64,000 bases of DNA. It comes from a virus (lineage: Duplodnaviria; Caudoviricetes). The position numbers were made by a program, and so were the translations under genes. Below, piece after piece: positions 9,228 through 49,678 of this stretch. The stretch spans positions 2,982 through 66,981 of IMG/VR virus record IMGVR_UViG_3300021958_010858; one strand, given 5' to 3'. The notes beneath the pieces are model-generated. The model was not told the origin of the DNA. It saw only the letters and a program-made list of their open reading frames with translations, and searched no databases. Positions within the stretch are counted from its first letter, which is position 1. Every line of letters begins with the position of its first letter.

Positions 9228-9251
9228 AAAAAAAGCGCCTTTCAGCGCTTT
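9228..9251 (-). terminator. intrinsic terminator closing the ncRNA unit
   Basis: AAAGCGC-TGAAAG-GCGCTTT stem followed by a T-run. Confidence 0.8.
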
Positions 9252-9704
9252 AAGTGCAAGATGCATATTAGGGTTGCAGCTTAATGATCGGCCCAAGCTA
9301 TACATCTCTATACCCGTGGTAATAAATAGTGAGCCACATAATATATAATGTGGTCTCTGATCGGGGTTTCAATCTTATTGTGATCGACTCTCTCGATTAA
9401 AATAGGTGTGGGGGAGGGCTACTGTATACCTCCAACTTTTCGGCGTGAACATCAGTTCATGGTGTACCTACTTCGAACTACAAATTAGACGTGGTATTTG
9501 TCATCGACTCATCCGATTGGACTCTACCGCCCCACCACAGGGAATTTGCATACCTTAACCCGCTCACGACAGGTTTAGTTCGGTCACCCACAGGAAGGAT
9601 TATAAGCCCTTCCAAATAGAATGGAACGAGTCAATGTCCGATACTCAGCTATCAACTCATTGTTCCAAAAGTGTTTAAAATGTTAAAGAACAAAAATAAA
9701 TTAT
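9228..9704 (-). ncRNA. large structured non-coding RNA, family unassigned (GOLLD/ROOL/MISL-class candidate)
   Basis: No minus-strand ORF >=60 aa in the track; 44% GC (hand count 186/420 over 9241-9660) in an AT-rich genome; many hairpins; own promoter and terminator. Confidence 0.75.
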
Positions 9705-12590: not shown

Positions 12591-12820
12591 TCATTTTTTT
12601 TCTTATTCTTGCACTTGCATTTGATTGAACAACTATTGTTTTGCCCATCTTCTTTTCTGAAAATTGTGTCGTAATTTTCATCAAACTTTTTCTTGTCTAT
12701 TGGTCTTGGCGCATCTCCTTTGCCTGCGCCAGAGAACTCTTTTTTATAAGTTTCGTTGCTCACTAGTTTTGGTTTATTTTTTGCTATTTCGCTTGTTATT
12801 TTTTTGCCTTTTTTACTCAT
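12587..12820 (-). CDS. small basic phage-type protein
   Basis: GAGKGDAPRPIDKKKFDENYDTIF motif. Confidence 0.6.
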   Translation of the reverse strand: MSKKGKKITSEIAKNKPKLVSNETYKKEFSGAGKGDAPRPIDKKKFDENYDTIFRKEDGQNNSCSIKCKCKNKKKNE

Positions 12821-13791
12821 ATTGATGACAGGTTAAACCTTTCTCCCTTTAGTGAATCCCAGTATTCCTCTTGTTCTGCAGATTTTTTTACTCTTTTTAC
12901 TACTTTTTGAAGTTTGTGGCGATTTGCCTTTACTTCTTTCCTGTGCTCGGTTTCCGAGCAAAGCAGGTTGGAATTTTTTTGAGAAACCTGCTTGCCTGTA
13001 TCTAGGGCAAGTTTTATTTTGCTCAAAGAAGCTTCTTGGATCTGCCTTACTCTTTCTTTTGTGAGTTTATGTTCTCTTCCGATTTCGTCAAGAGTTTTAA
13101 TTGTTGACCCAAATAATCCAAATCTATGTGATACTATGTATTTCTCTCTTTCATTGAGGTTATTTACACACTCTAGGAGCTCATCATTTAATTCTGAAGA
13201 CTCTATGTCTTCCACGAAATCCTGGGAATCGTCTTTAATTAAATCCGCTAGAGTTAGATCTTCTTCGTTGCTTGAACTTAAATTTTGATCCAGCGAACTT
13301 GAGTCTGTCATAGACTGCTTTAAATTTATAATCTGAGTTTCCGCAATTCCAATCTTTTTTGAAATTTCTTTTGGCGTAGGATTTCTGCCTAATTCTTCAA
13401 GCATAGCTTCTTCCGCCTTTTTAATTTTGAAATATTTATTTACTGCACCTAGCGGAATTGCAATTGACCTATTTTTCTTGTAAATAAATTCTCTAATCTT
13501 TGATTTTACATAAAACGCCGCAAAGGTGCTGAACTTATTTCCTTTTGAAAAATCATATCTTTCTGCCGCAATCATTAGCCCGCAATTGCCTTCGGCGATT
13601 AGATCTTCTAAATCATTGACTGAAGACTTGTATTGTTTTGCGATATAGATAACTAGCTTGAGGTTAGATTCCACCAGCTTGGTTCTCGCCTCGTCTTTAT
13701 TAAGAGACGATAAGTTCATTTCTTCTTCCGCGGTAAGCGTTTCTTTTTCGGAAACTTCGTTTAAGTATTTTTGTAAAGTATTGTTTTGCAT
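12817..13791 (-). CDS. RNA polymerase sigma70-family factor (group 2-like, divergent region 2)
   Basis: r1.2 LQKYLNEV, r2 NLKLVIYIAKQY/DLIAEGNCGL, r3, r4 LDEIG...ERVRQI; ATG 13791 preferred because the track start is the promoter TTG. Confidence 0.92.
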   Translation of the reverse strand: MQNNTLQKYLNEVSEKETLTAEEEMNLSSLNKDEARTKLVESNLKLVIYIAKQYKSSVNDLEDLIAEGNCGLMIAAERYDFSKGNKFSTFAAFYVKSKIREFIYKKNRSIAIPLGAVNKYFKIKKAEEAMLEELGRNPTPKEISKKIGIAETQIINLKQSMTDSSSLDQNLSSSNEEDLTLADLIKDDSQDFVEDIESSELNDELLECVNNLNEREKYIVSHRFGLFGSTIKTLDEIGREHKLTKERVRQIQEASLSKIKLALDTGKQVSQKNSNLLCSETEHRKEVKANRHKLQKVVKRVKKSAEQEEYWDSLKGERFNLSSI

Positions 13792-13825
13792 AATTTCTGG
13801 GTTTTTAATTTTGATTATGCTATAT

Positions 13826-13854
13826 ATAGTATAGAACTCTCGCGGCTTTGTCAA
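13826..13854 (-). promoter_or_regulatory. sigma70-type promoter of the sigma gene
   Basis: TTGACA-17 bp-TACTAT. Confidence 0.55.
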
Positions 13855-13878: not shown

Positions 13879-14302
13879 TGGTGGAGGTGGCGGGAGTTGA
13901 ACCCGCGTCCTAAGTGCCTTCAGTATACACTTCTACATGCTTAGTCAATTTCCTTTAGGGTTGTTGATATTGACATCGAACCGCTTGTTTCAATTATTTA
14001 CAGTTTATGAAAGAGCAAACCTTTTCTGTTTTGCAGATAATGCCCTCGCGTACGCTATCTGCGTCACGTATTTGAGGAGACAGCGTTTAAGCTGCCATTT
14101 CGAGCTCTTCAAGCTCTCCATAAAGGGCAGTGGCTTCCTCAATAACTTGAGAAACTGCATACTCTTCACGAGCGGCTTCAAGAAGCTCTTCTACGGTATT
14201 ATAACCTTCGCCATTTATAGGCTTTGTGTCTTATTGCGGAGCCAGACACATCTCCGACATGCGATGCATAAATCCAACATTAGTCGAATCCAGTACACCC
14301 CC
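13879..14302 (-). ncRNA. ssrA: tmRNA (424 nt)
   Basis: 5' GGGGGTG pairs with 3' CACCTCC-A-CCA including G3:U wobble; T-arm GCGGGTTCAACTCCCGC; pk1 CGGAG/CTCCG plus TGTGTCT/AGACACA; tag frame ending AA-stop. Confidence 0.95.
14087..14212 (-). other. tmRNA tag reading frame, 41 codons: GEGYNTVEELLEAAREEYAVSQVIEEATALYGELEELEMAA*
   Basis: resume context ATAAAT-GGC right after pk1; open to GCA GCT TAA. Confidence 0.8.
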
Positions 14303-14325: not shown

Positions 14326-14353
14326 AGTATACACTAATAAATGATAATGTCAA
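14326..14353 (-). promoter_or_regulatory. promoter of tmRNA
   Basis: TTGACA-16 bp-TATACT; also contains the GTGTA motif. Confidence 0.55.
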
Positions 14354-24005: not shown

Positions 24006-25268
24006 TTAACTAAAAATATCTAATATTGGGGGCTCGCCATTTGAAACTTTAAAGGGTCTTCCGCTTGGGGAGTAAGTTGTCTTTTCGACGCTTAGTCCCA
24101 TAGCATAAGCTATTGTTGCATTTATTGACGGTACATCTACTCCATTTTCTTCCACATAATGACCTCTTTTGTCTGATTTTCCGTAAACATAACCTTCTTT
24201 GATTCCTCCTCCCGCAAACAAAACGCTAAACGCAGATGGATGATGATCTCTTCCAACTCTTCCAGCTTTTACTTCTGGAGTTCTTCCGAATTCACTGGCC
24301 ACAACAACCATTGTGTCAGAAAGTAAGCCGCGAACGCTCAAATCCTCGAGTAGAGAACTTAGTCCAGCATCTAGGACCGCTCCTCGTGTTTCCATGTTTC
24401 CAAAAACATCATTGTGCATGTCCCATCCGCCGTAAGAAACTTCTACAAAGCGAACTTTGTTTTCAACAAGCCTTCTTGCGAGCAAGCATCCCTGTCCGAA
24501 GTTGTCTTGTCCATATTTTTCTCTAAGCGATTCAGGCTCTTTTGTTAAATCAAAAGCCTCCAAGTCTTTACTTTTCATTAAGTTGACTGCGCTGTCGTAT
24601 AAATCTGAATAGGCTCTAACTTGTTTTTGCGGAAAGTCATTCGAAAAACTTTTATTTAAAAAACTTGATGCCTCCAAGCGCTTGTTATACATACTTTCTT
24701 GAACGTATCCAGATTTTTTTACATTTTGTATTCCTGCATTTGGATTTCCTAGAGGTAGTGGCCCATATTTACTTTCAAAATAACCAGCCCCAATGATTCC
24801 GCTTCCTCCATTAATTTTTACATTATCTGGCAAGGCTTCATTTAGTTTGCCAGACATTTTACTAATCCAGCTTCCCATGCTTGGGTGAACTATGGTTCCT
24901 CTTTTTTGATAGCTAGTATGTAGTAAATAATTAGCTTGTTCATGCGCTCCCTGATTACTGTTTACAGATCTAACCAAAGAAGCTAAATGCATTTGTTTTG
25001 CGGTCTTGGGTAGCCAATTTCCTAACTGTATTCCATCTGCAGATGTATTGATCGCCGTAGTCTCTCCCATTACATCATTATTTTCTGGCTTTGGGTCAAA
25101 AGTATCGATATGGGTCATGCCTCCAGTCATGTTTAAAAATATGACATGTCTGGCCGTTGGAATTCTTGTTGTTTTTGCTATAAGTTCTGGGCCGTAGATC
25201 AAAGCACTCACTCCCAAGTACGATTTTGCCAAACCTTCTATGAAGGATCGTCTTGATATTTCATTCAT
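24006..25268 (-). CDS. DUF1501-family protein with Tat-like signal
   Basis: SRRSF, VIFLNMTGGMTHIDTFDPKP, ARRLVE..VRFVEV..GGWD.H, SEFGRTP, GRDHHP. Confidence 0.93.
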   Translation of the reverse strand: MNEISRRSFIEGLAKSYLGVSALIYGPELIAKTTRIPTARHVIFLNMTGGMTHIDTFDPKPENNDVMGETTAINTSADGIQLGNWLPKTAKQMHLASLVRSVNSNQGAHEQANYLLHTSYQKRGTIVHPSMGSWISKMSGKLNEALPDNVKINGGSGIIGAGYFESKYGPLPLGNPNAGIQNVKKSGYVQESMYNKRLEASSFLNKSFSNDFPQKQVRAYSDLYDSAVNLMKSKDLEAFDLTKEPESLREKYGQDNFGQGCLLARRLVENKVRFVEVSYGGWDMHNDVFGNMETRGAVLDAGLSSLLEDLSVRGLLSDTMVVVASEFGRTPEVKAGRVGRDHHPSAFSVLFAGGGIKEGYVYGKSDKRGHYVEENGVDVPSINATIAYAMGLSVEKTTYSPSGRPFKVSNGEPPILDIFS

Positions 25269-26116
25269 TAGTAATCTTTCTTTTTTTTGTGATAACCTTT
25301 TGCTTTTTCGTGTTTGTAGCCCATGTCTTTCATTTTCAAATGGTCTTTGTAGGTTTTTGCCATGTATCCCTTACCTGTCTTTGGGTCATACATCATATGT
25401 GGCTTGAAGTCTTTTTCTCCCTCTTCTCCTTTGGCTTTTTTCTTTTTTTCTAAAATAGACTTTTTAATCGCTTCGGGTAATTTTTTTTGCTGCTCAGTTA
25501 GGGAAGACTCTTTATCTTTTTTATTATCTTCTTCGGCTTTGGATTTTTTCTTTTTCTTCTTCTTGGGTTCTTGCGCTTTCTTCCAAGACTTTGCGTCTGG
25601 TCGGTCTTTGTCTCCTGGTTTTGCGGGGCGATAATTTTTTCCCATTCTCTCTTTCTTTTTTCTAATGTTATCCCACAAACCTTTTCCTTGTGATTCGTCT
25701 AAAATTTCTTCAAGCTCTTGGTCGTCTAGCTCTGAACCTTTGGTTATTTTTGTTACACTTTTTGCCGACCACATTTTGCAACTCCAGTATCTTGCTTTCC
25801 ATTTGGGGCCAGGATTGTCGCAATTATGTCTAGACCTAAAAGCTTTTCTCCTGCCTGGGTCATCTCGCTTGATTTCCATATTTGGATCCCCGAAATTAAC
25901 TTTTACGACATTGCCTTTATCGTTCTTTACATAAACAGAAAACTTTTTAGGTCCTCCTGAGGTTCTGAAAGGCTTGTTTAACTTTTTACCTTTGTTTTTT
26001 TCTTCTGCCCAAGCTTCATGGGAGATGTCTTCTTCGATTCCCTCTAGTGAGCATGCATAACAATCCATATAGTGGATTTTTTCAGAAAAGTCTATTTCAA
26101 TTTTTTTATTATTCAT
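25268..26116 (-). CDS. very basic modular phage-type protein
   Basis: VKVNFGDPNM.IKRDD..RRKAFRSRHNC...ARYWSC, GLWDNI and FKPHMMYDPKTG modules. Confidence 0.7.
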   Translation of the reverse strand: MNNKKIEIDFSEKIHYMDCYACSLEGIEEDISHEAWAEEKNKGKKLNKPFRTSGGPKKFSVYVKNDKGNVVKVNFGDPNMEIKRDDPGRRKAFRSRHNCDNPGPKWKARYWSCKMWSAKSVTKITKGSELDDQELEEILDESQGKGLWDNIRKKKERMGKNYRPAKPGDKDRPDAKSWKKAQEPKKKKKKKSKAEEDNKKDKESSLTEQQKKLPEAIKKSILEKKKKAKGEEGEKDFKPHMMYDPKTGKGYMAKTYKDHLKMKDMGYKHEKAKGYHKKKKDY

Positions 26117-26138
26117 AATGATAAAATTTGGTATAGTA

Positions 26139-26148
26139 TATAATACAC
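26139..26148 (-). promoter_or_regulatory. GTGTA-type upstream motif
   Basis: GTGTATTATA upstream of ATG 26116. Confidence 0.45.
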
Positions 26149-26155
26149 GTATTTT

Positions 26156-28183
26156 TTATTTTATAAAGATAAATTCGTGTGTGTTTAATAGAATCCATGA
26201 AACGTGTTTGAATCCATCTTTCTCGTCTATAAAGTCTTTTAGTTTATTTGATTCGTTTGTTTTTGGCTTTCTTGATAAAATTGATAAGAAAGCATTTTCC
26301 ACTTGTTTTTGTTTGCTGTTTTCTTTCTGCATTAATTTAATAAAGTCGGCGTCTTTTTTATTTAAAATATTACTTTCTACAAATCCATTTAATAAATTAA
26401 GAACTTGGGTTGTATTGGGTTCTGAATTGCTGTTGTCTATTTGTTCTTTGTCGCTGCCCCCAAATTGTCTAATTAAGTGTCCTCCAGGTGCAGGATACTG
26501 AAGGTAACTGCTTCTAACTAAATTCCTATCTTTAATTCGTTTTTCTTTATCTGAGCCAGAATAAATAATTGCAAGTAGATTTCGATTGCCGTCATTTTCT
26601 GAGGCAAGTTGTTTAAAATCAGCATAAATTTCTTCCCCCGTCATGTCTTTGTACCTTTCGTATAATGGAGTATAATCTTGTTGGTTGTGTAGATAAACTC
26701 TATCTTTTGAATCTATATTGTTATAAACTAAGGTTACTAACGAGTCCCATAATTGCTCCCCAGTCATTCTTCTTAAAATTGGTCCCTGAAAATTATAATC
26801 CTCAAGGGTTTTATAATCTTCTTTTTTACTTTCTCTTTGAAAAAGTTTTGTGTTGAGCAAGATTCTCTTATATTCCCTGAGATCATAATTAACACTCACC
26901 ATTAATCTTTCCAAATATTTCATTAGCTTTTCGTTGCTTGCTAGGGTATTGTCCATCATTGAGTCTATCGGCTCTATTAAGCCTGCGCCAAAAATATGTT
27001 TCCAGATTCTATTTGCTATCATAGTCGTAAATCTCGGGTTGTCTTTGCTGGTTAACCAGTCTGCAAAAACTTCTCTGCTTTTTCCCTCTACTGCTTCTGT
27101 TGGTTTTGGAGTGAAGATTGCCTTGGCCATAACTAAATCTCCAGGTTTTCCATCGTCTTCTGCGAAATCTTTTGGTAGTTTTATGGTGCCCGTTCCATTG
27201 TTTTCTATTCCGAATTGGATTGAATCTCTAACTTGATTTCTCCAATTATTAAATAAGCCAGCCTTTTCATCTCCGTCTCTATTGATCGCTCTACTTAGTT
27301 CGCCTATAGCTTTGCCCCCCTCTTTCAGCCTAACATTTCCAATACCAGATGTGAAAGCGGTCATTTCGTAAAACTGTCTTTGGGTCCACTTGTCAAAGGG
27401 GTGATCGTGGCACATTGCACACTCAAGTTTTGTTCCCAGAAAAATACGAATGGTATGAGAAAGATTGTCTTCTTGCATGCCCCTGTCTCTAAGATAATAA
27501 CTTATTGCCTCTCCTCCATCTAAAAGCTTGCCGCTGCTACTCAATAACTCTCGGACTATTTTGTCATAGGGCTTTTTGTTTTCCAATTGTACCCTTAACC
27601 ATTTCCTATAAACCGACCCAACGTTTATATTTGTTCCGCTTACCCTATCTTTTATTCTTAGCATATCGCTCCACCAATTTAATTGGTGATTGACGTATCC
27701 ATTTGAATTCAAAAGTTTTTGAATCAACTTATCTTTTTTATTGCTGTCTCTATCATCTATAAAAGCTTGTAGTTCAGATTGAGTTGGAATTCTACCTATA
27801 ATTGTCAAGTATAGTCTTCTTGCGTAGGTATAGTCATCTAATTCTTTGGTTTTTTGTAGTTTTTTTGCTCTTAAATTTTGTTCTATCAAGCTGTCAATAT
27901 ATGATACGTAGGAATTTAATGTTCTTTGATCTAGTGGTCCTTTCGATTGAGGTATGGTACTGTATCTGCCTTGTGAATGATATAGCTCTACTTGTTTTTG
28001 AGAGTCTTCCGTGAGCAAGCCTATCTCGAATCTAAACTGCTGTAGGTCTTTTGCCCTCTGTATTCTTACGTGCGTTTCGTTTGCATCTAATATTTTAGCC
28101 TCTAAAATATTTCCGTCATTAAAATAGAGTTTTTCCGCAAAAATTACAAGCGGTAAAAAAAACAATATTGCTAGTGCCTTCAT
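26156..28183 (-). CDS. DUF1549 (PSCyt2)/DUF1553 (PSD1) protein with signal peptide and SHD1-like N-domain
   Basis: ARRLYL.IIGRIPT, FLGTKLECAMCHDHPFDKW (CxxCH), DWLTSKDNPRF...NRIWK..FG.GL. Confidence 0.92.
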   Translation of the reverse strand: MKALAILFFLPLVIFAEKLYFNDGNILEAKILDANETHVRIQRAKDLQQFRFEIGLLTEDSQKQVELYHSQGRYSTIPQSKGPLDQRTLNSYVSYIDSLIEQNLRAKKLQKTKELDDYTYARRLYLTIIGRIPTQSELQAFIDDRDSNKKDKLIQKLLNSNGYVNHQLNWWSDMLRIKDRVSGTNINVGSVYRKWLRVQLENKKPYDKIVRELLSSSGKLLDGGEAISYYLRDRGMQEDNLSHTIRIFLGTKLECAMCHDHPFDKWTQRQFYEMTAFTSGIGNVRLKEGGKAIGELSRAINRDGDEKAGLFNNWRNQVRDSIQFGIENNGTGTIKLPKDFAEDDGKPGDLVMAKAIFTPKPTEAVEGKSREVFADWLTSKDNPRFTTMIANRIWKHIFGAGLIEPIDSMMDNTLASNEKLMKYLERLMVSVNYDLREYKRILLNTKLFQRESKKEDYKTLEDYNFQGPILRRMTGEQLWDSLVTLVYNNIDSKDRVYLHNQQDYTPLYERYKDMTGEEIYADFKQLASENDGNRNLLAIIYSGSDKEKRIKDRNLVRSSYLQYPAPGGHLIRQFGGSDKEQIDNSNSEPNTTQVLNLLNGFVESNILNKKDADFIKLMQKENSKQKQVENAFLSILSRKPKTNESNKLKDFIDEKDGFKHVSWILLNTHEFIFIK

Positions 28184-47254: not shown

Positions 47255-49678
47255 TTACTTCGCTTCTATCTCTGATTTTGATTCTTTGAATTTAAAATTA
47301 ATTTCTTTTAGGTCTTTGTTTTCTAAAATTTTTCTTGCACAAATCGACTGAACTTCGTCTCTAAAAATTCTTTGCAAGGGTCTTGCTCCCATGTTTTCCT
47401 CCATTGCTCTTTTGCATATATCTATTCTTGCTTGCGCTGAGATCTTTAAGTTTATGTTTTTCTTTTTTAATTGTTTTTGAAAGTCTTTTATTTCTGTGTT
47501 TAGTATTTTTCTTAAATCTTCTATTTTTAATTGATTGTAAGCTATAATAGAGTCTATCCTATTCAAGAGCTCAAGTTTAAAATGCTTCTTCGCTGAATTT
47601 AAAATTGATTTTTTTAGATCTTTTGTGTTTGGCTCTTGGCTCATGAAGCCTACTGAGCTTGTTTTTTGATATAACTCTTGCCCAACATTAGACGTCATTA
47701 CTATTATTGCGTTTGAGAAATCCGCAGATTGCCCCATATTGCCCGTTAATTTTCCTTCTTCTAGGATTTGAAGTAATAAATTTAATACGTCTTCGTGCGC
47801 TTTTTCTATTTCGTCAAAAATAATAACACAATACGGGTTTCTCTTTACTCTTTCTATTAACTGCGCTCCTTCTTCGTATCCAACATATCCTGGCGAGGCC
47901 CCAATTAATCTTGTTATTGATGTTTTTTCTGAGAACTCGGACATGTCTAACTGAATTAAATTATCCTCTCTTTCAAATAAATTTCTGGCAATCATTTTTG
48001 CCGTGTATGTTTTACCTAAGCCCGTGGAACCTAGAAAAAGAAAGCTTCCTATTGGCTTGGTGCTGTCACTTAAGCCCGAAAAAGAAAACATAACTGCTTC
48101 GTTGATCGCTTTTACTGCATCATCCTGGCCAATAACTGATTTCAAGAGCTTTTTTTCTAAGTCGATAGCTTCGCTGCTATAATCTTTTTTGATTTTTTCG
48201 ATGGGAATGCCTGTTTTTTCTGAAATTACTTTGTATAAGTCTTGTTCTGTTACTTTTACTCCTATTTTCTTACATTCTTTTGCCCAGTCATCAAGTTTAT
48301 TTTTGTACGACTCGAAAACCTTCTCTGCCCTATTCATTATTTTTACTTTAGCTTTTCCTTTTGCAAATTCTTCCTGGTCGAAAAGTTTTTGTAAATTTTT
48401 TTCTATTTTTTTAATATTCTGCGGTCTTTTAAATGCTTTTATTTTAACTTTAGAGGCAGATTGATCTATTAAATCTATTGCCTTGTCTGGCAAAAACTTA
48501 TCCATGATATATTTTTTTGACAAGTCTACTGCTGCCTCTATTGACTCTGCTGTGTACTCTATACCGTGAAAATTTTCATAGGTTTTAGAGACTTTATTTA
48601 AAATTTTAATTGCTTGATCTCTCGTTGGCTCATTTACTGAAATTGAATGGAACCTTCTATCTAATGCTCCATCTTTTAGTATTGTTTTTCTATATTCATC
48701 AAAAGTTGTCGCTCCAATACATCTTACTTGACCCCTTGCTAGGAAGGGTTTTAAGATATTTGCTGCGTCCATTCCTCCTTCCGAGTTGCCTGCGCCAATA
48801 AGCGTATGAATTTCATCTATAAATAATATGACTCTTTGGTCCGCCGAAGCTTCTGTTATTAAATTTTTTAACCTTTCCTCAAACTGTCCTCGATATTTTG
48901 TCCCCGCAATCATTGCTGGTAAATCTATTGCATAGATTTTTTTATCTAATAAAAATTCTGCCGAATCGCCTTTTGCTATTTTTTGAGCTAAAGCTTCAAT
49001 TACTGCGGTTTTCCCTACTCCAGCATCTCCTAATAATATTGGATTATTTTTTGCTTTTCTGCATAAGACTTCTGATATTTGGATTATTTCATTTTCTTTA
49101 TAGAAAACTTCGTCTAATTTATTTTGTGCTGCAAGTTCCGTGTAGTCGATAGAAAATTTTGCTAACGCGCTTTCTTTGGGTTGCGTTTCTGTAGTATTTA
49201 GCGGTGTTGGTGTGCTGGGGTTTTTTTCTGGAGACTTGTTGCAAGTTATATACTCTTCTACTGATCGTAATACTTTCTGTATATTATGTCCCAAATCTTC
49301 AAAATAGTCTTTGATTCCTTCGCTTGACACGCAAACATAAAAAAGGTGCTCTAAGCCTACGTAATCGTGATTAAATTGAGTGGCGTATACTAGAGATTGT
49401 TTTATATTTTCCTTAAAAGATTCGCTGAATTCTGGGATATTCTTTTCCGACTCTTCTAGAATTGCTTCCTGTAGAATTGTCGACAATAGTCCTCCATCAA
49501 TATTTAAATTTTCTAAAATATTGTTAATGACGAATTGCCTCGCTTCCAGGATCGCTATCAAGAGATGTACGGGTTCCGTAGAGGAATTATTTAATTCCAT
49601 TGCAATCTTTTTTGCAGACGCTATGGCTTTTTGCGCGCGGGGCGTAAAATTAGGAGTAATGTTATTCATTCTTCTCAT
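47255..49678 (-). CDS. clpC: ClpC/ClpA-type AAA+ chaperone with ClpP-docking loop
   Basis: Clp-N repeats, GDAGVGKT/FIDEIH, GSTGLGKT/FDEIEKAH, SVGF loop, GARPL. Confidence 0.92.
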   Translation of the reverse strand: MRRMNNITPNFTPRAQKAIASAKKIAMELNNSSTEPVHLLIAILEARQFVINNILENLNIDGGLLSTILQEAILEESEKNIPEFSESFKENIKQSLVYATQFNHDYVGLEHLFYVCVSSEGIKDYFEDLGHNIQKVLRSVEEYITCNKSPEKNPSTPTPLNTTETQPKESALAKFSIDYTELAAQNKLDEVFYKENEIIQISEVLCRKAKNNPILLGDAGVGKTAVIEALAQKIAKGDSAEFLLDKKIYAIDLPAMIAGTKYRGQFEERLKNLITEASADQRVILFIDEIHTLIGAGNSEGGMDAANILKPFLARGQVRCIGATTFDEYRKTILKDGALDRRFHSISVNEPTRDQAIKILNKVSKTYENFHGIEYTAESIEAAVDLSKKYIMDKFLPDKAIDLIDQSASKVKIKAFKRPQNIKKIEKNLQKLFDQEEFAKGKAKVKIMNRAEKVFESYKNKLDDWAKECKKIGVKVTEQDLYKVISEKTGIPIEKIKKDYSSEAIDLEKKLLKSVIGQDDAVKAINEAVMFSFSGLSDSTKPIGSFLFLGSTGLGKTYTAKMIARNLFEREDNLIQLDMSEFSEKTSITRLIGASPGYVGYEEGAQLIERVKRNPYCVIIFDEIEKAHEDVLNLLLQILEEGKLTGNMGQSADFSNAIIVMTSNVGQELYQKTSSVGFMSQEPNTKDLKKSILNSAKKHFKLELLNRIDSIIAYNQLKIEDLRKILNTEIKDFQKQLKKKNINLKISAQARIDICKRAMEENMGARPLQRIFRDEVQSICARKILENKDLKEINFKFKESKSEIEAK

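Follow-up and report, generated by a model that had tools for sequence, protein, structure and literature searches.

A phage one-piece tmRNA gene with a probable 41-codon acidic tag

Trans-translation tags are usually regarded as short degrons of about 10 residues. A tmRNA gene in a contig of an uncultured marine phage, in which the open frame behind the expected resume site runs for 41 codons, raises the question of whether so long a tag is really read and, if so, what it is for. The gene lies in the window, by which we mean the whole 64,000-nt stretch of DNA analyzed here; it makes up most of an IMG/VR viral contig of 66,981 bases (∼51% complete according to CheckV; GC ∼35%). Our reading, to which we give a probability of about 0.82, is that the gene specifies a functional phage-encoded one-piece tmRNA that appends a long acidic tag of 41 codons.

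The identity of the RNA is clear (Table 1). The gene matches the Rfam tmRNA family along its entire length (score, 120.9 bits; gathering threshold, 47; E = 1.1e-46; positions 1 through 374 of the model), and both the length of 424 nt and the canonical tRNA-like domain followed by PK1, as given in a preliminary description of the locus, are borne out by the Rfam match, the acceptor stem, the T-arm, and the pseudoknot. In tmRNA numbering the acceptor stem comprises pairs 1 through 7 with 414 through 420, including G3·U418 (the G3·U70 alanine identity pair), and the T-arm spans 397 through 413; all seven acceptor pairs are invariant in 10 sequences. Scans of viral contigs with the first 20 nt of the gene, in exact and in relaxed form, together with one metagenome match, gave 18 further tmRNAs whose scaffold is conserved at a mean column identity of ∼73%. 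PK1 carries compensatory changes in these relatives (e.g., UGCAUCU/AGAUGCA and GCACUU/AAGUGC), the pairing count of its stem 2 being depressed in the alignment by 1-nt register slips. Across the named helices 83% of cells pair, compared with 40 to 47% in slid controls, and double changes occur in 15 pairs, compared with 1 to 6; this covariation supports the helices. The PK2 through PK4 region is strongly conserved across the lineage, yet Rfam posterior probabilities are low there.

Upstream of the gene is a predicted sigma-70-type promoter that agrees with the consensus at 11 of 12 positions. It ends 24 nt before the mature 5′ end, so a short leader would be removed by RNase P, and its sequence is identical upstream of a near-identical copy of the gene (L074). 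The flanks are phage-like, with a sigma-70-family factor directly downstream as well as dCMP deaminase, dUTPase, and sugar-modification genes. No tblastn-confirmed homolog of the sigma factor was found in viral contigs, and none was detected in five lineage relatives that carry the tmRNA, four of which also carry ClpC. Elsewhere in the window, a region at 9228 through 9738 that had been described as an ornate noncoding RNA is probably accounted for by a manA RNA motif.

Table 1. Features of the tmRNA locus and of other elements in the window (window positions)
Feature	Position	Strand	Details
One-piece tmRNA gene, complete	13879..14302	(-)	424 nt with encoded CCA; Rfam RF00023
Candidate sigma-70-type promoter, TTGACA-16 nt-TATACT	14326..14353	(-)	11/12 consensus positions; function predicted
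Acceptor stem, 5′ strand GGGGGUG	14296..14302	(-)	Pairs with 13883-13889; holds G3·U70
PK1, stem 1 CGGAG/CUCCG and stem 2 UGUGUCU/AGACACA	14225..14256	(-)	Read from sequence; CGGAG-A-UGUGUCU-GG-CUCCG-CAAUA-AGACACA (14256-14225); H-type; stems of 5 and 7 bp
Spacer AAGCCUAUAAAU, 12 nt, single-stranded	14213..14224	(-)	Contains U(-5) and A(-4), counted from the resume codon
Tag frame GEGYNTVEELLEAAREEYAVSQVIEEATALYGELEELEMAA, 41 codons, GGC...GCU	14090..14212	(-)	Placed by Rfam alignment, lineage, and collinear relatives
Imperfect hairpin in tag template, 87 nt	14102..14188	(-)	tmRNA nt 115-201; tip CUCAA-GUUA-UUGAG
UAA stop in helix-5 loop	14087..14089	(-)	Stem 14091-14095 / 14080-14084; helix of 5-6 bp
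T-arm of tRNA-like domain, GCGGG-UUCAACU-CCCGC	13890..13906	(-)	Every cell pairs; compensatory changes in 2 pairs
Sigma-70-family factor	12817-13854	(-)	Directly downstream of tmRNA; own TTGACA-17-TACTAT promoter
manA RNA motif (RF01745)	9403-9613	(-)	Rfam 77.9 bits vs. gathering score 55.2; E 4e-18; full model
DUF1501 protein and PSCyt2-PSD1 (DUF1549/DUF1553) protein	24006-28183	(-)	
ClpC-type double-AAA+ unfoldase	47255..49678	(-)	Pfam Clp_N, AAA, AAA_lid_9, AAA_2, ClpB_D2-small

The length of the tag depends on where translation resumes. The proposed site, AUAAAU followed by GGC at window position 14212, places the resume codon at tmRNA nt 91, 12 nt after PK1, and the consensus resume codon of the Rfam model aligns on this same GGC. 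All 19 lineage tmRNAs have GGC at nt 90 through 92 after an invariant A-x-A-U; within the spacer A87, A89, and U90 are invariant and U86 is nearly so (at least 90%; alignment A1). In E. coli, U85 and A86 set the tmRNA reading frame, with A86 almost universally conserved (PMC2481249), and the window U(-5) and A(-4) correspond to these two bases. The alignment to the Rfam model, the distance of 12 nt from PK1, the U(-5)/A(-4) pair, and the position of GGC in 18 related tmRNAs together show, on comparative grounds, resumption at GGC 14212 and hence a 41-codon tag, in agreement with the resume site and the frame (14212 through 14087) first proposed.

Comparison with relatives indicates that the frame is also maintained as protein. 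From codon 1 onward, the tag is collinear with the 34-residue tags of four relatives (L203, L213, L223, and L231), which read GEGY(D/Y)SIEEL(L/I)EAA(R/T)EEY...AEELEMVA, with dN/dS of 0.26 to 0.40; the set available for the 41-codon variant is a small one, consisting of a single near-identical copy and these four relatives, which differ mid-tag. Over the first 18 codons dN is 0.07 to 0.16 and dS 0.32 to 0.48 between the window and the 34-residue relatives, and in the same comparison tag columns 13, 18, 27, 30, 31, and 34 show synonymous variation only. The near-identical copy L074, from a marine metagenome, has seven substitutions in 424 nt, of which the single one in the ORF is synonymous. From these substitution patterns, peptide-level constraint is seen to act on the tag, although a hairpin that runs through the ORF could account for part of the apparent coding constraint.

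The peptide itself contains 12 Glu and a single Arg but lacks Asp, and its net charge is -11; the absence of Asp had been noted before, together with a count of 13 Glu that is not reproduced here. AlphaFold2 predicts one continuous helix over residues 7 through 40 (pLDDT 91.5) in place of the three similar helical blocks suggested earlier. An amphipathic character of this helix was considered and rejected, the hydrophobic moment being not above that of shuffled sequences (p = 0.16). The octamer-scale DNA repeat GAAGAGCT, from which growth by internal duplication had been proposed, does occur twice in the ORF (nt 22 and 103), but an exact repeat of at least 8 nt is found in 39% of codon shuffles; the repeat is thus not significant, and internal duplication was dropped as the origin of the tag length. 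The peptide ends in ...LEMAA. A ClpX-type degron formed by the C-terminal Met-Ala-Ala is plausible but uncertain, since in the nearest relatives with acidic tags the ending is ...EMVA and not Ala-Ala.

An alternative account of the long frame is that selection acts on the RNA. The tag template folds into an 87-nt imperfect hairpin with a minimum free energy (MFE) of -47.3 kcal/mol (z = -3.47), and none of 200 shuffles folds as well; an equivalent hairpin was found by folding the relative L203. Two copies of GAAGAGCU lie on opposite arms at the hairpin base, although the octamers are not paired to each other in the MFE structure. For relatives with basic tags, the RNAalifold consensus is a hairpin of 26 pairs, four of them compensatory; for those with acidic tags it has 36 predicted pairs, and covariation there is thin (two pairs only). 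The extra length of the window tag over its 34-residue relatives corresponds to a single expansion of 21 nt, in frame and located apically in the hairpin, the exact position of this seven-codon indel being ambiguous. A comparable feature is seen in basic 31-residue tags (alignment A3), where an apparent peptide repeat, GFKNR...KRFGFK, sits on the two arms of a hairpin with the tip CGCU-GCAA-AGCG; the peptide "duplication" is in that case tied to an inverted repeat in the RNA.

Under this alternative the peptide would be mostly a passenger, needing only to keep the frame and its C-terminal end, and the hairpin might serve RNA stability, nuclease resistance, or gating of the resume codon. The stable fold, the consensus pairs in both tag classes, the GAAGAGCU repeat on both arms of the stem, and a mid-peptide that varies freely among relatives all argue for it. 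What it leaves unexplained is the uniformly extreme charge of the tags (net -11, or +4 to +12) and the retention, through synonymous and conservative changes, of the N-terminal 18 residues GEGYxxxEELLEAAREEY, whose codons lie partly outside the stem; the thin covariation in the acidic class also speaks against it. We therefore regard hairpin selection as a possible but doubtful explanation for the frame, and one that can coexist with a role of the RNA in ribosome rescue.

The lineage to which the gene belongs has tags that differ widely. Two classes can be distinguished. Acidic tags, on six contigs, have 34 or 41 residues, a net charge of about -11, and the ending ...EMVA or ...EMAA; basic tags, on 13 contigs, have 20 to 33 residues and a net charge of +4 to +12 (e.g., GNKNRVRALGFKNRLAAKRFGFKGRKLALAA). 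Indels in the tag measure 21, 33, 3, and 6 nt, and every length difference is a multiple of three; the tag cassette is hypervariable on a conserved scaffold. In the scaffold tree the window falls among members with basic tags. Under the approximately unbiased (AU) test, however, a common origin of the acidic members is not rejected (p = 0.41), and for this reason exchange of tag cassettes between scaffolds was dropped.

In this sampling the lineage is known from phage contigs only. Among 50,697 GenBank phage records, the matches covered only the 3′ tRNA-like end and fell at att sites of enterobacteria, and the scaffold was found in no isolate phage. As to a cellular donor, an nhmmer profile of the lineage run against 119 and 70 cellular tmRNA loci matches the 3′ tRNA-like domain only, with the exception of one weak full-length match in Endomicrobium. 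Separately, at least five other, unrelated phage tmRNA scaffolds encode tags of 11 to 34 residues ending in E-(L/M/Y)-EMAA (e.g., DNKVISLDVNQVNANMSKVFSLINSNVEELEMAA and ANVELSTWTFEDAMAFAEGELEMAA; members L003/L005/L006, L014, L017/L028/L050/L052, L043, L049, and L016/L019/L020/L060/L063). The EMAA ending is absent from the sampled cellular tags and may be a phage-specific or host-clade-specific variant of the degron.

How unusual the length is can be judged against the probable hosts. The best clue to these is a pair of genes for a DUF1501 protein and a PSCyt2-PSD1 protein, families that Planctomycetota and Verrucomicrobiota have expanded to dozens of copies and that are phage-borne here; the DUF1501 gene has 32 to 50 matching loci per genome in Opitutales and Tepidisphaeraceae. 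Because the contig carries these genes, the two phyla are candidate hosts, and from gene content the host is probably a member of the PVC superphylum. Host-phylum tmRNAs were sampled independently of tag sequence (30 from each phylum): tags of 8 to 10 residues were found in 28 of the Planctomycetota, where the longest tag had 20 residues, and in 29 of the Verrucomicrobiota, where the longest had 18. When one genome per GTDB species was scanned for the pattern ...MAA-stop, spaced from a T-arm as in a tmRNA, the matches were mostly Planctomycetota with nine-residue tags, and no tag ended in EMAA. In these samples, equally long tags are not common in the presumed host clade; that they might be was one outcome that the preliminary description had set against its own claim. 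ARAGORN tags of 25 to 33 residues in the cellular loci L107, L148, L167, and L244 were left uncounted as secondary or oversized calls with noncanonical ends.

Some cellular tags of ∼20 residues with a G-R-(F/I)-G-F core (ANSDVAGRFGFAAAPVRMAA; L085, L136, L175, L185, L194, L115, and L253, from Tepidisphaerales/Phycisphaerae) are similar in length to the basic phage tags of 20 residues (GNKNRVRAFGFKSRELALAA) and share an xFGF motif with them; beyond the tRNA-like domain, their RNA scaffolds are dissimilar to that of the phage.

The literature that we searched yielded no published maximum for tag length. The mRNA-like domain has been given as 48 to 126 nt and the longest tmRNA as 425 nt (Burks 2005), and a Mycoplasma tag of 27 residues has been called "unusual long" (PMC8403727). 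The initial description of the phage tag as exceptionally long stands with respect to the host phyla, whose tags this one far exceeds, but not in the sense of an isolated case, its lineage relatives having 20 to 34 residues. It is a very long tag, the longest seen in its lineage, yet it is the top of a continuum, because tags of up to 34 residues occur in its relatives, tags of 24 to 34 on other phage scaffolds with ...E-x-EMAA ends, and an acidic tag of 25 in mycobacteriophage Bxz1.

Could the long tag serve to divert rescued proteins from a host SspB/ClpXP-type pathway to a protease built from a phage unfoldase and host ClpP? The window encodes a ClpC-type protein. Among solved structures S. 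aureus ClpC is its best match (E = 6e-182), and the ClpP-docking loop aligns with SVGF in the phage protein. Homologs with 42 to 45% identity are present in eight of 10 lineage relatives, including all that are at least 90% complete, and the gene lies 1.4 kb from the tmRNA in two of them; one homolog (G120:C1:49124-51502) is read through a single in-frame TAA, which may reflect gene breakage, an error in sequencing, or recoding. There is also a precedent, the 27-residue Mycoplasma tag being read by Lon instead of ClpXP (PMC8403727). Against such rerouting, the distance between the two genes varies from 1.4 to 33 kb, acidic and basic tags both occur with similar ClpC proteins, complete phages of other groups have long ...E-x-EMAA tags without ClpC, and an adaptor was not found in the phage records. 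For the first three of these reasons the association between ClpC and the tag is phylogenetic co-occurrence and nothing more, and rerouting through ClpC is unlikely. Neither SmpB (window contig and seven related phage records, two of them at least 93% complete) nor ClpP, Lon (Lon_C), SspB, or ClpS (window contig and related records, some 93 to 100% complete) was found; the RNA would thus use host SmpB, and any proteolysis would fall to host peptidases.

A shorter tag, arising from resumption further along the same frame, is much less probable still. ARAGORN calls a tmRNA from 14255 with a 28-residue tag starting at GCU, and a second AAAUGGC is present at about 14095 through 14100. The start called by ARAGORN, however, falls within PK1 and misses the true acceptor stem at 14302, and because the 5′ end is wrong so is the 28-residue call. 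Its GCU has no A-rich context upstream and lies ∼50 nt from PK1, the residues before it are conserved as protein, and the Rfam consensus places resumption at GGC 14212 instead. Resumption near 14095, raised in the preliminary description as an outcome that would leave a very short tag, is excluded, because several phage tmRNA lineages retain the peptide ELEMAA while its codons change synonymously, and the 34-residue relatives retain the first 18 codons. ARAGORN also miscalls or misses further members of the lineage: for several, among them L207, L208, and the window, it returns a wrong 5′ end, a wrong tag, or no call, where Rfam scores 97 to 139 bits. Phage tag statistics based on ARAGORN are consequently off and under-report tag diversity.

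An origin of the gene as host DNA, whether from an attachment site or from a misbinned contig, or as a decaying pseudogene is extremely improbable, for although 3′ ssrA fragments from integration sites are common in phage records, this gene is full length with its own predicted promoter, has phage genes on both sides in a 67-kb viral contig, has conserved counterparts on 18 or more further viral contigs, and resembles sampled cellular tmRNAs only at the 3′ tRNA-like end; it is a phage-encoded tmRNA and not an ssrA att-site fragment.

By analogy with established tmRNA biology, the phage tmRNA would act as follows. It would be transcribed from its own strong sigma-70-type promoter, trimmed of its leader, and charged with alanine by the host alanyl-tRNA synthetase via G3·U70. 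Host SmpB would presumably deliver it into stalled ribosomes, where translation would resume at GGC (nt 91), positioned by PK1 and the U(-5)/A(-4) bases, and the ribosome would read 41 codons up to the UAA in the helix-5 loop, appending (A)GEGYNTVEELLEAAREEYAVSQVIEEATALYGELEELEMAA. The result would be ribosome rescue during infection from an early promoter, with the C-terminal Ala-Ala as a putative degron; the long charged helix may add a further property to rescued proteins, for example, adaptor or unfoldase binding, or solubility. The window variant itself would have been produced by the 21-nt in-frame expansion in the hairpin.

More noteworthy than a record length is that a single scaffold carries long tags of two kinds, acidic and basic. 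Lineage tags are two to four times longer than those of the probable host phyla and carry extreme opposite charges, which suggests that these phages use the tag beyond the standard ClpXP signal of the host. A bolder version, which we offer as speculation and consider improbable, is that the tag is a swappable effector module on a conserved scaffold, a helix of charge about -11 in one form and a peptide of about +10 in the other, 20 to 41 residues long, that is put as a functional peptide on host nascent chains during takeover. If so, the peptide could pass host chains to a phage-specific unfoldase or adaptor, or change their solubility or localization, and the two charge classes would represent adaptation to different hosts or an arms race. 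The reader of the tag, if identified, would show how the phage reshapes host protein quality control, and the 41-residue version would be a handy extreme case for experiments.

Among known systems, tmRNA genes occur in about 2.3% of sequenced phages, and the Methylophilales phage Melnitz and the pelagimyophages, large marine phages, carry them behind early promoters (PMC9004378). Those RNAs are circularly permuted, two-piece, and of alphaproteobacterial type, whereas that of the window is in one piece and has no identifiable cellular donor. The mycobacteriophage Bxz1-type tmRNA (listed in PMC4131195), for which ARAGORN gives the 25-residue tag ATDTDATVTDAEIEAFFAEEAAALV, is likewise complete, in one piece, and encoded by a phage, and its tag is also long and acidic. 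Its scaffold, however, is unrelated (no blastn similarity), the tag is shorter and ends in ...ALV, and its host belongs to another phylum.

The 27-residue Mycoplasma ssrA tag is, according to PMC8403727, which cites Gur and Sauer 2008, read by Lon. Like the phage tag it is much longer than the norm, and its length goes together with being recognized by a protease that is not ClpXP, so that it offers a model of what additional tag length may achieve. It is, however, rich in hydrophobic and aromatic residues, cellular, and evolved in organisms that lack ClpXP, whereas the tag described here comes from a phage, is acidic, and has the ending MAA. With 12 Glu and a net charge of -11, the phage tag differs from Lon-directed tags, and Lon was not found in the phage; the likeness is one of functional analogy only.

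A further comparison is with canonical bacterial one-piece SsrA (RF00023; e.g., E. coli). Shared with it are the tRNA-like domain with G3·U70 and CCA, PK1, a spacer of 10 to 12 nt, U(-5)/A(-4), a resume codon at approximately nt 90, a stop codon in the helix-5 loop, and an Ala-Ala C terminus. E. coli SsrA encodes ANDENYALAA. The phage, in which no smpB was found, departs from this with a resume codon for Gly (GGC), a tag template contained in an 87-nt hairpin, and a tag of 41 codons rather than 10, with a net charge of -11 and a predicted single long helix.
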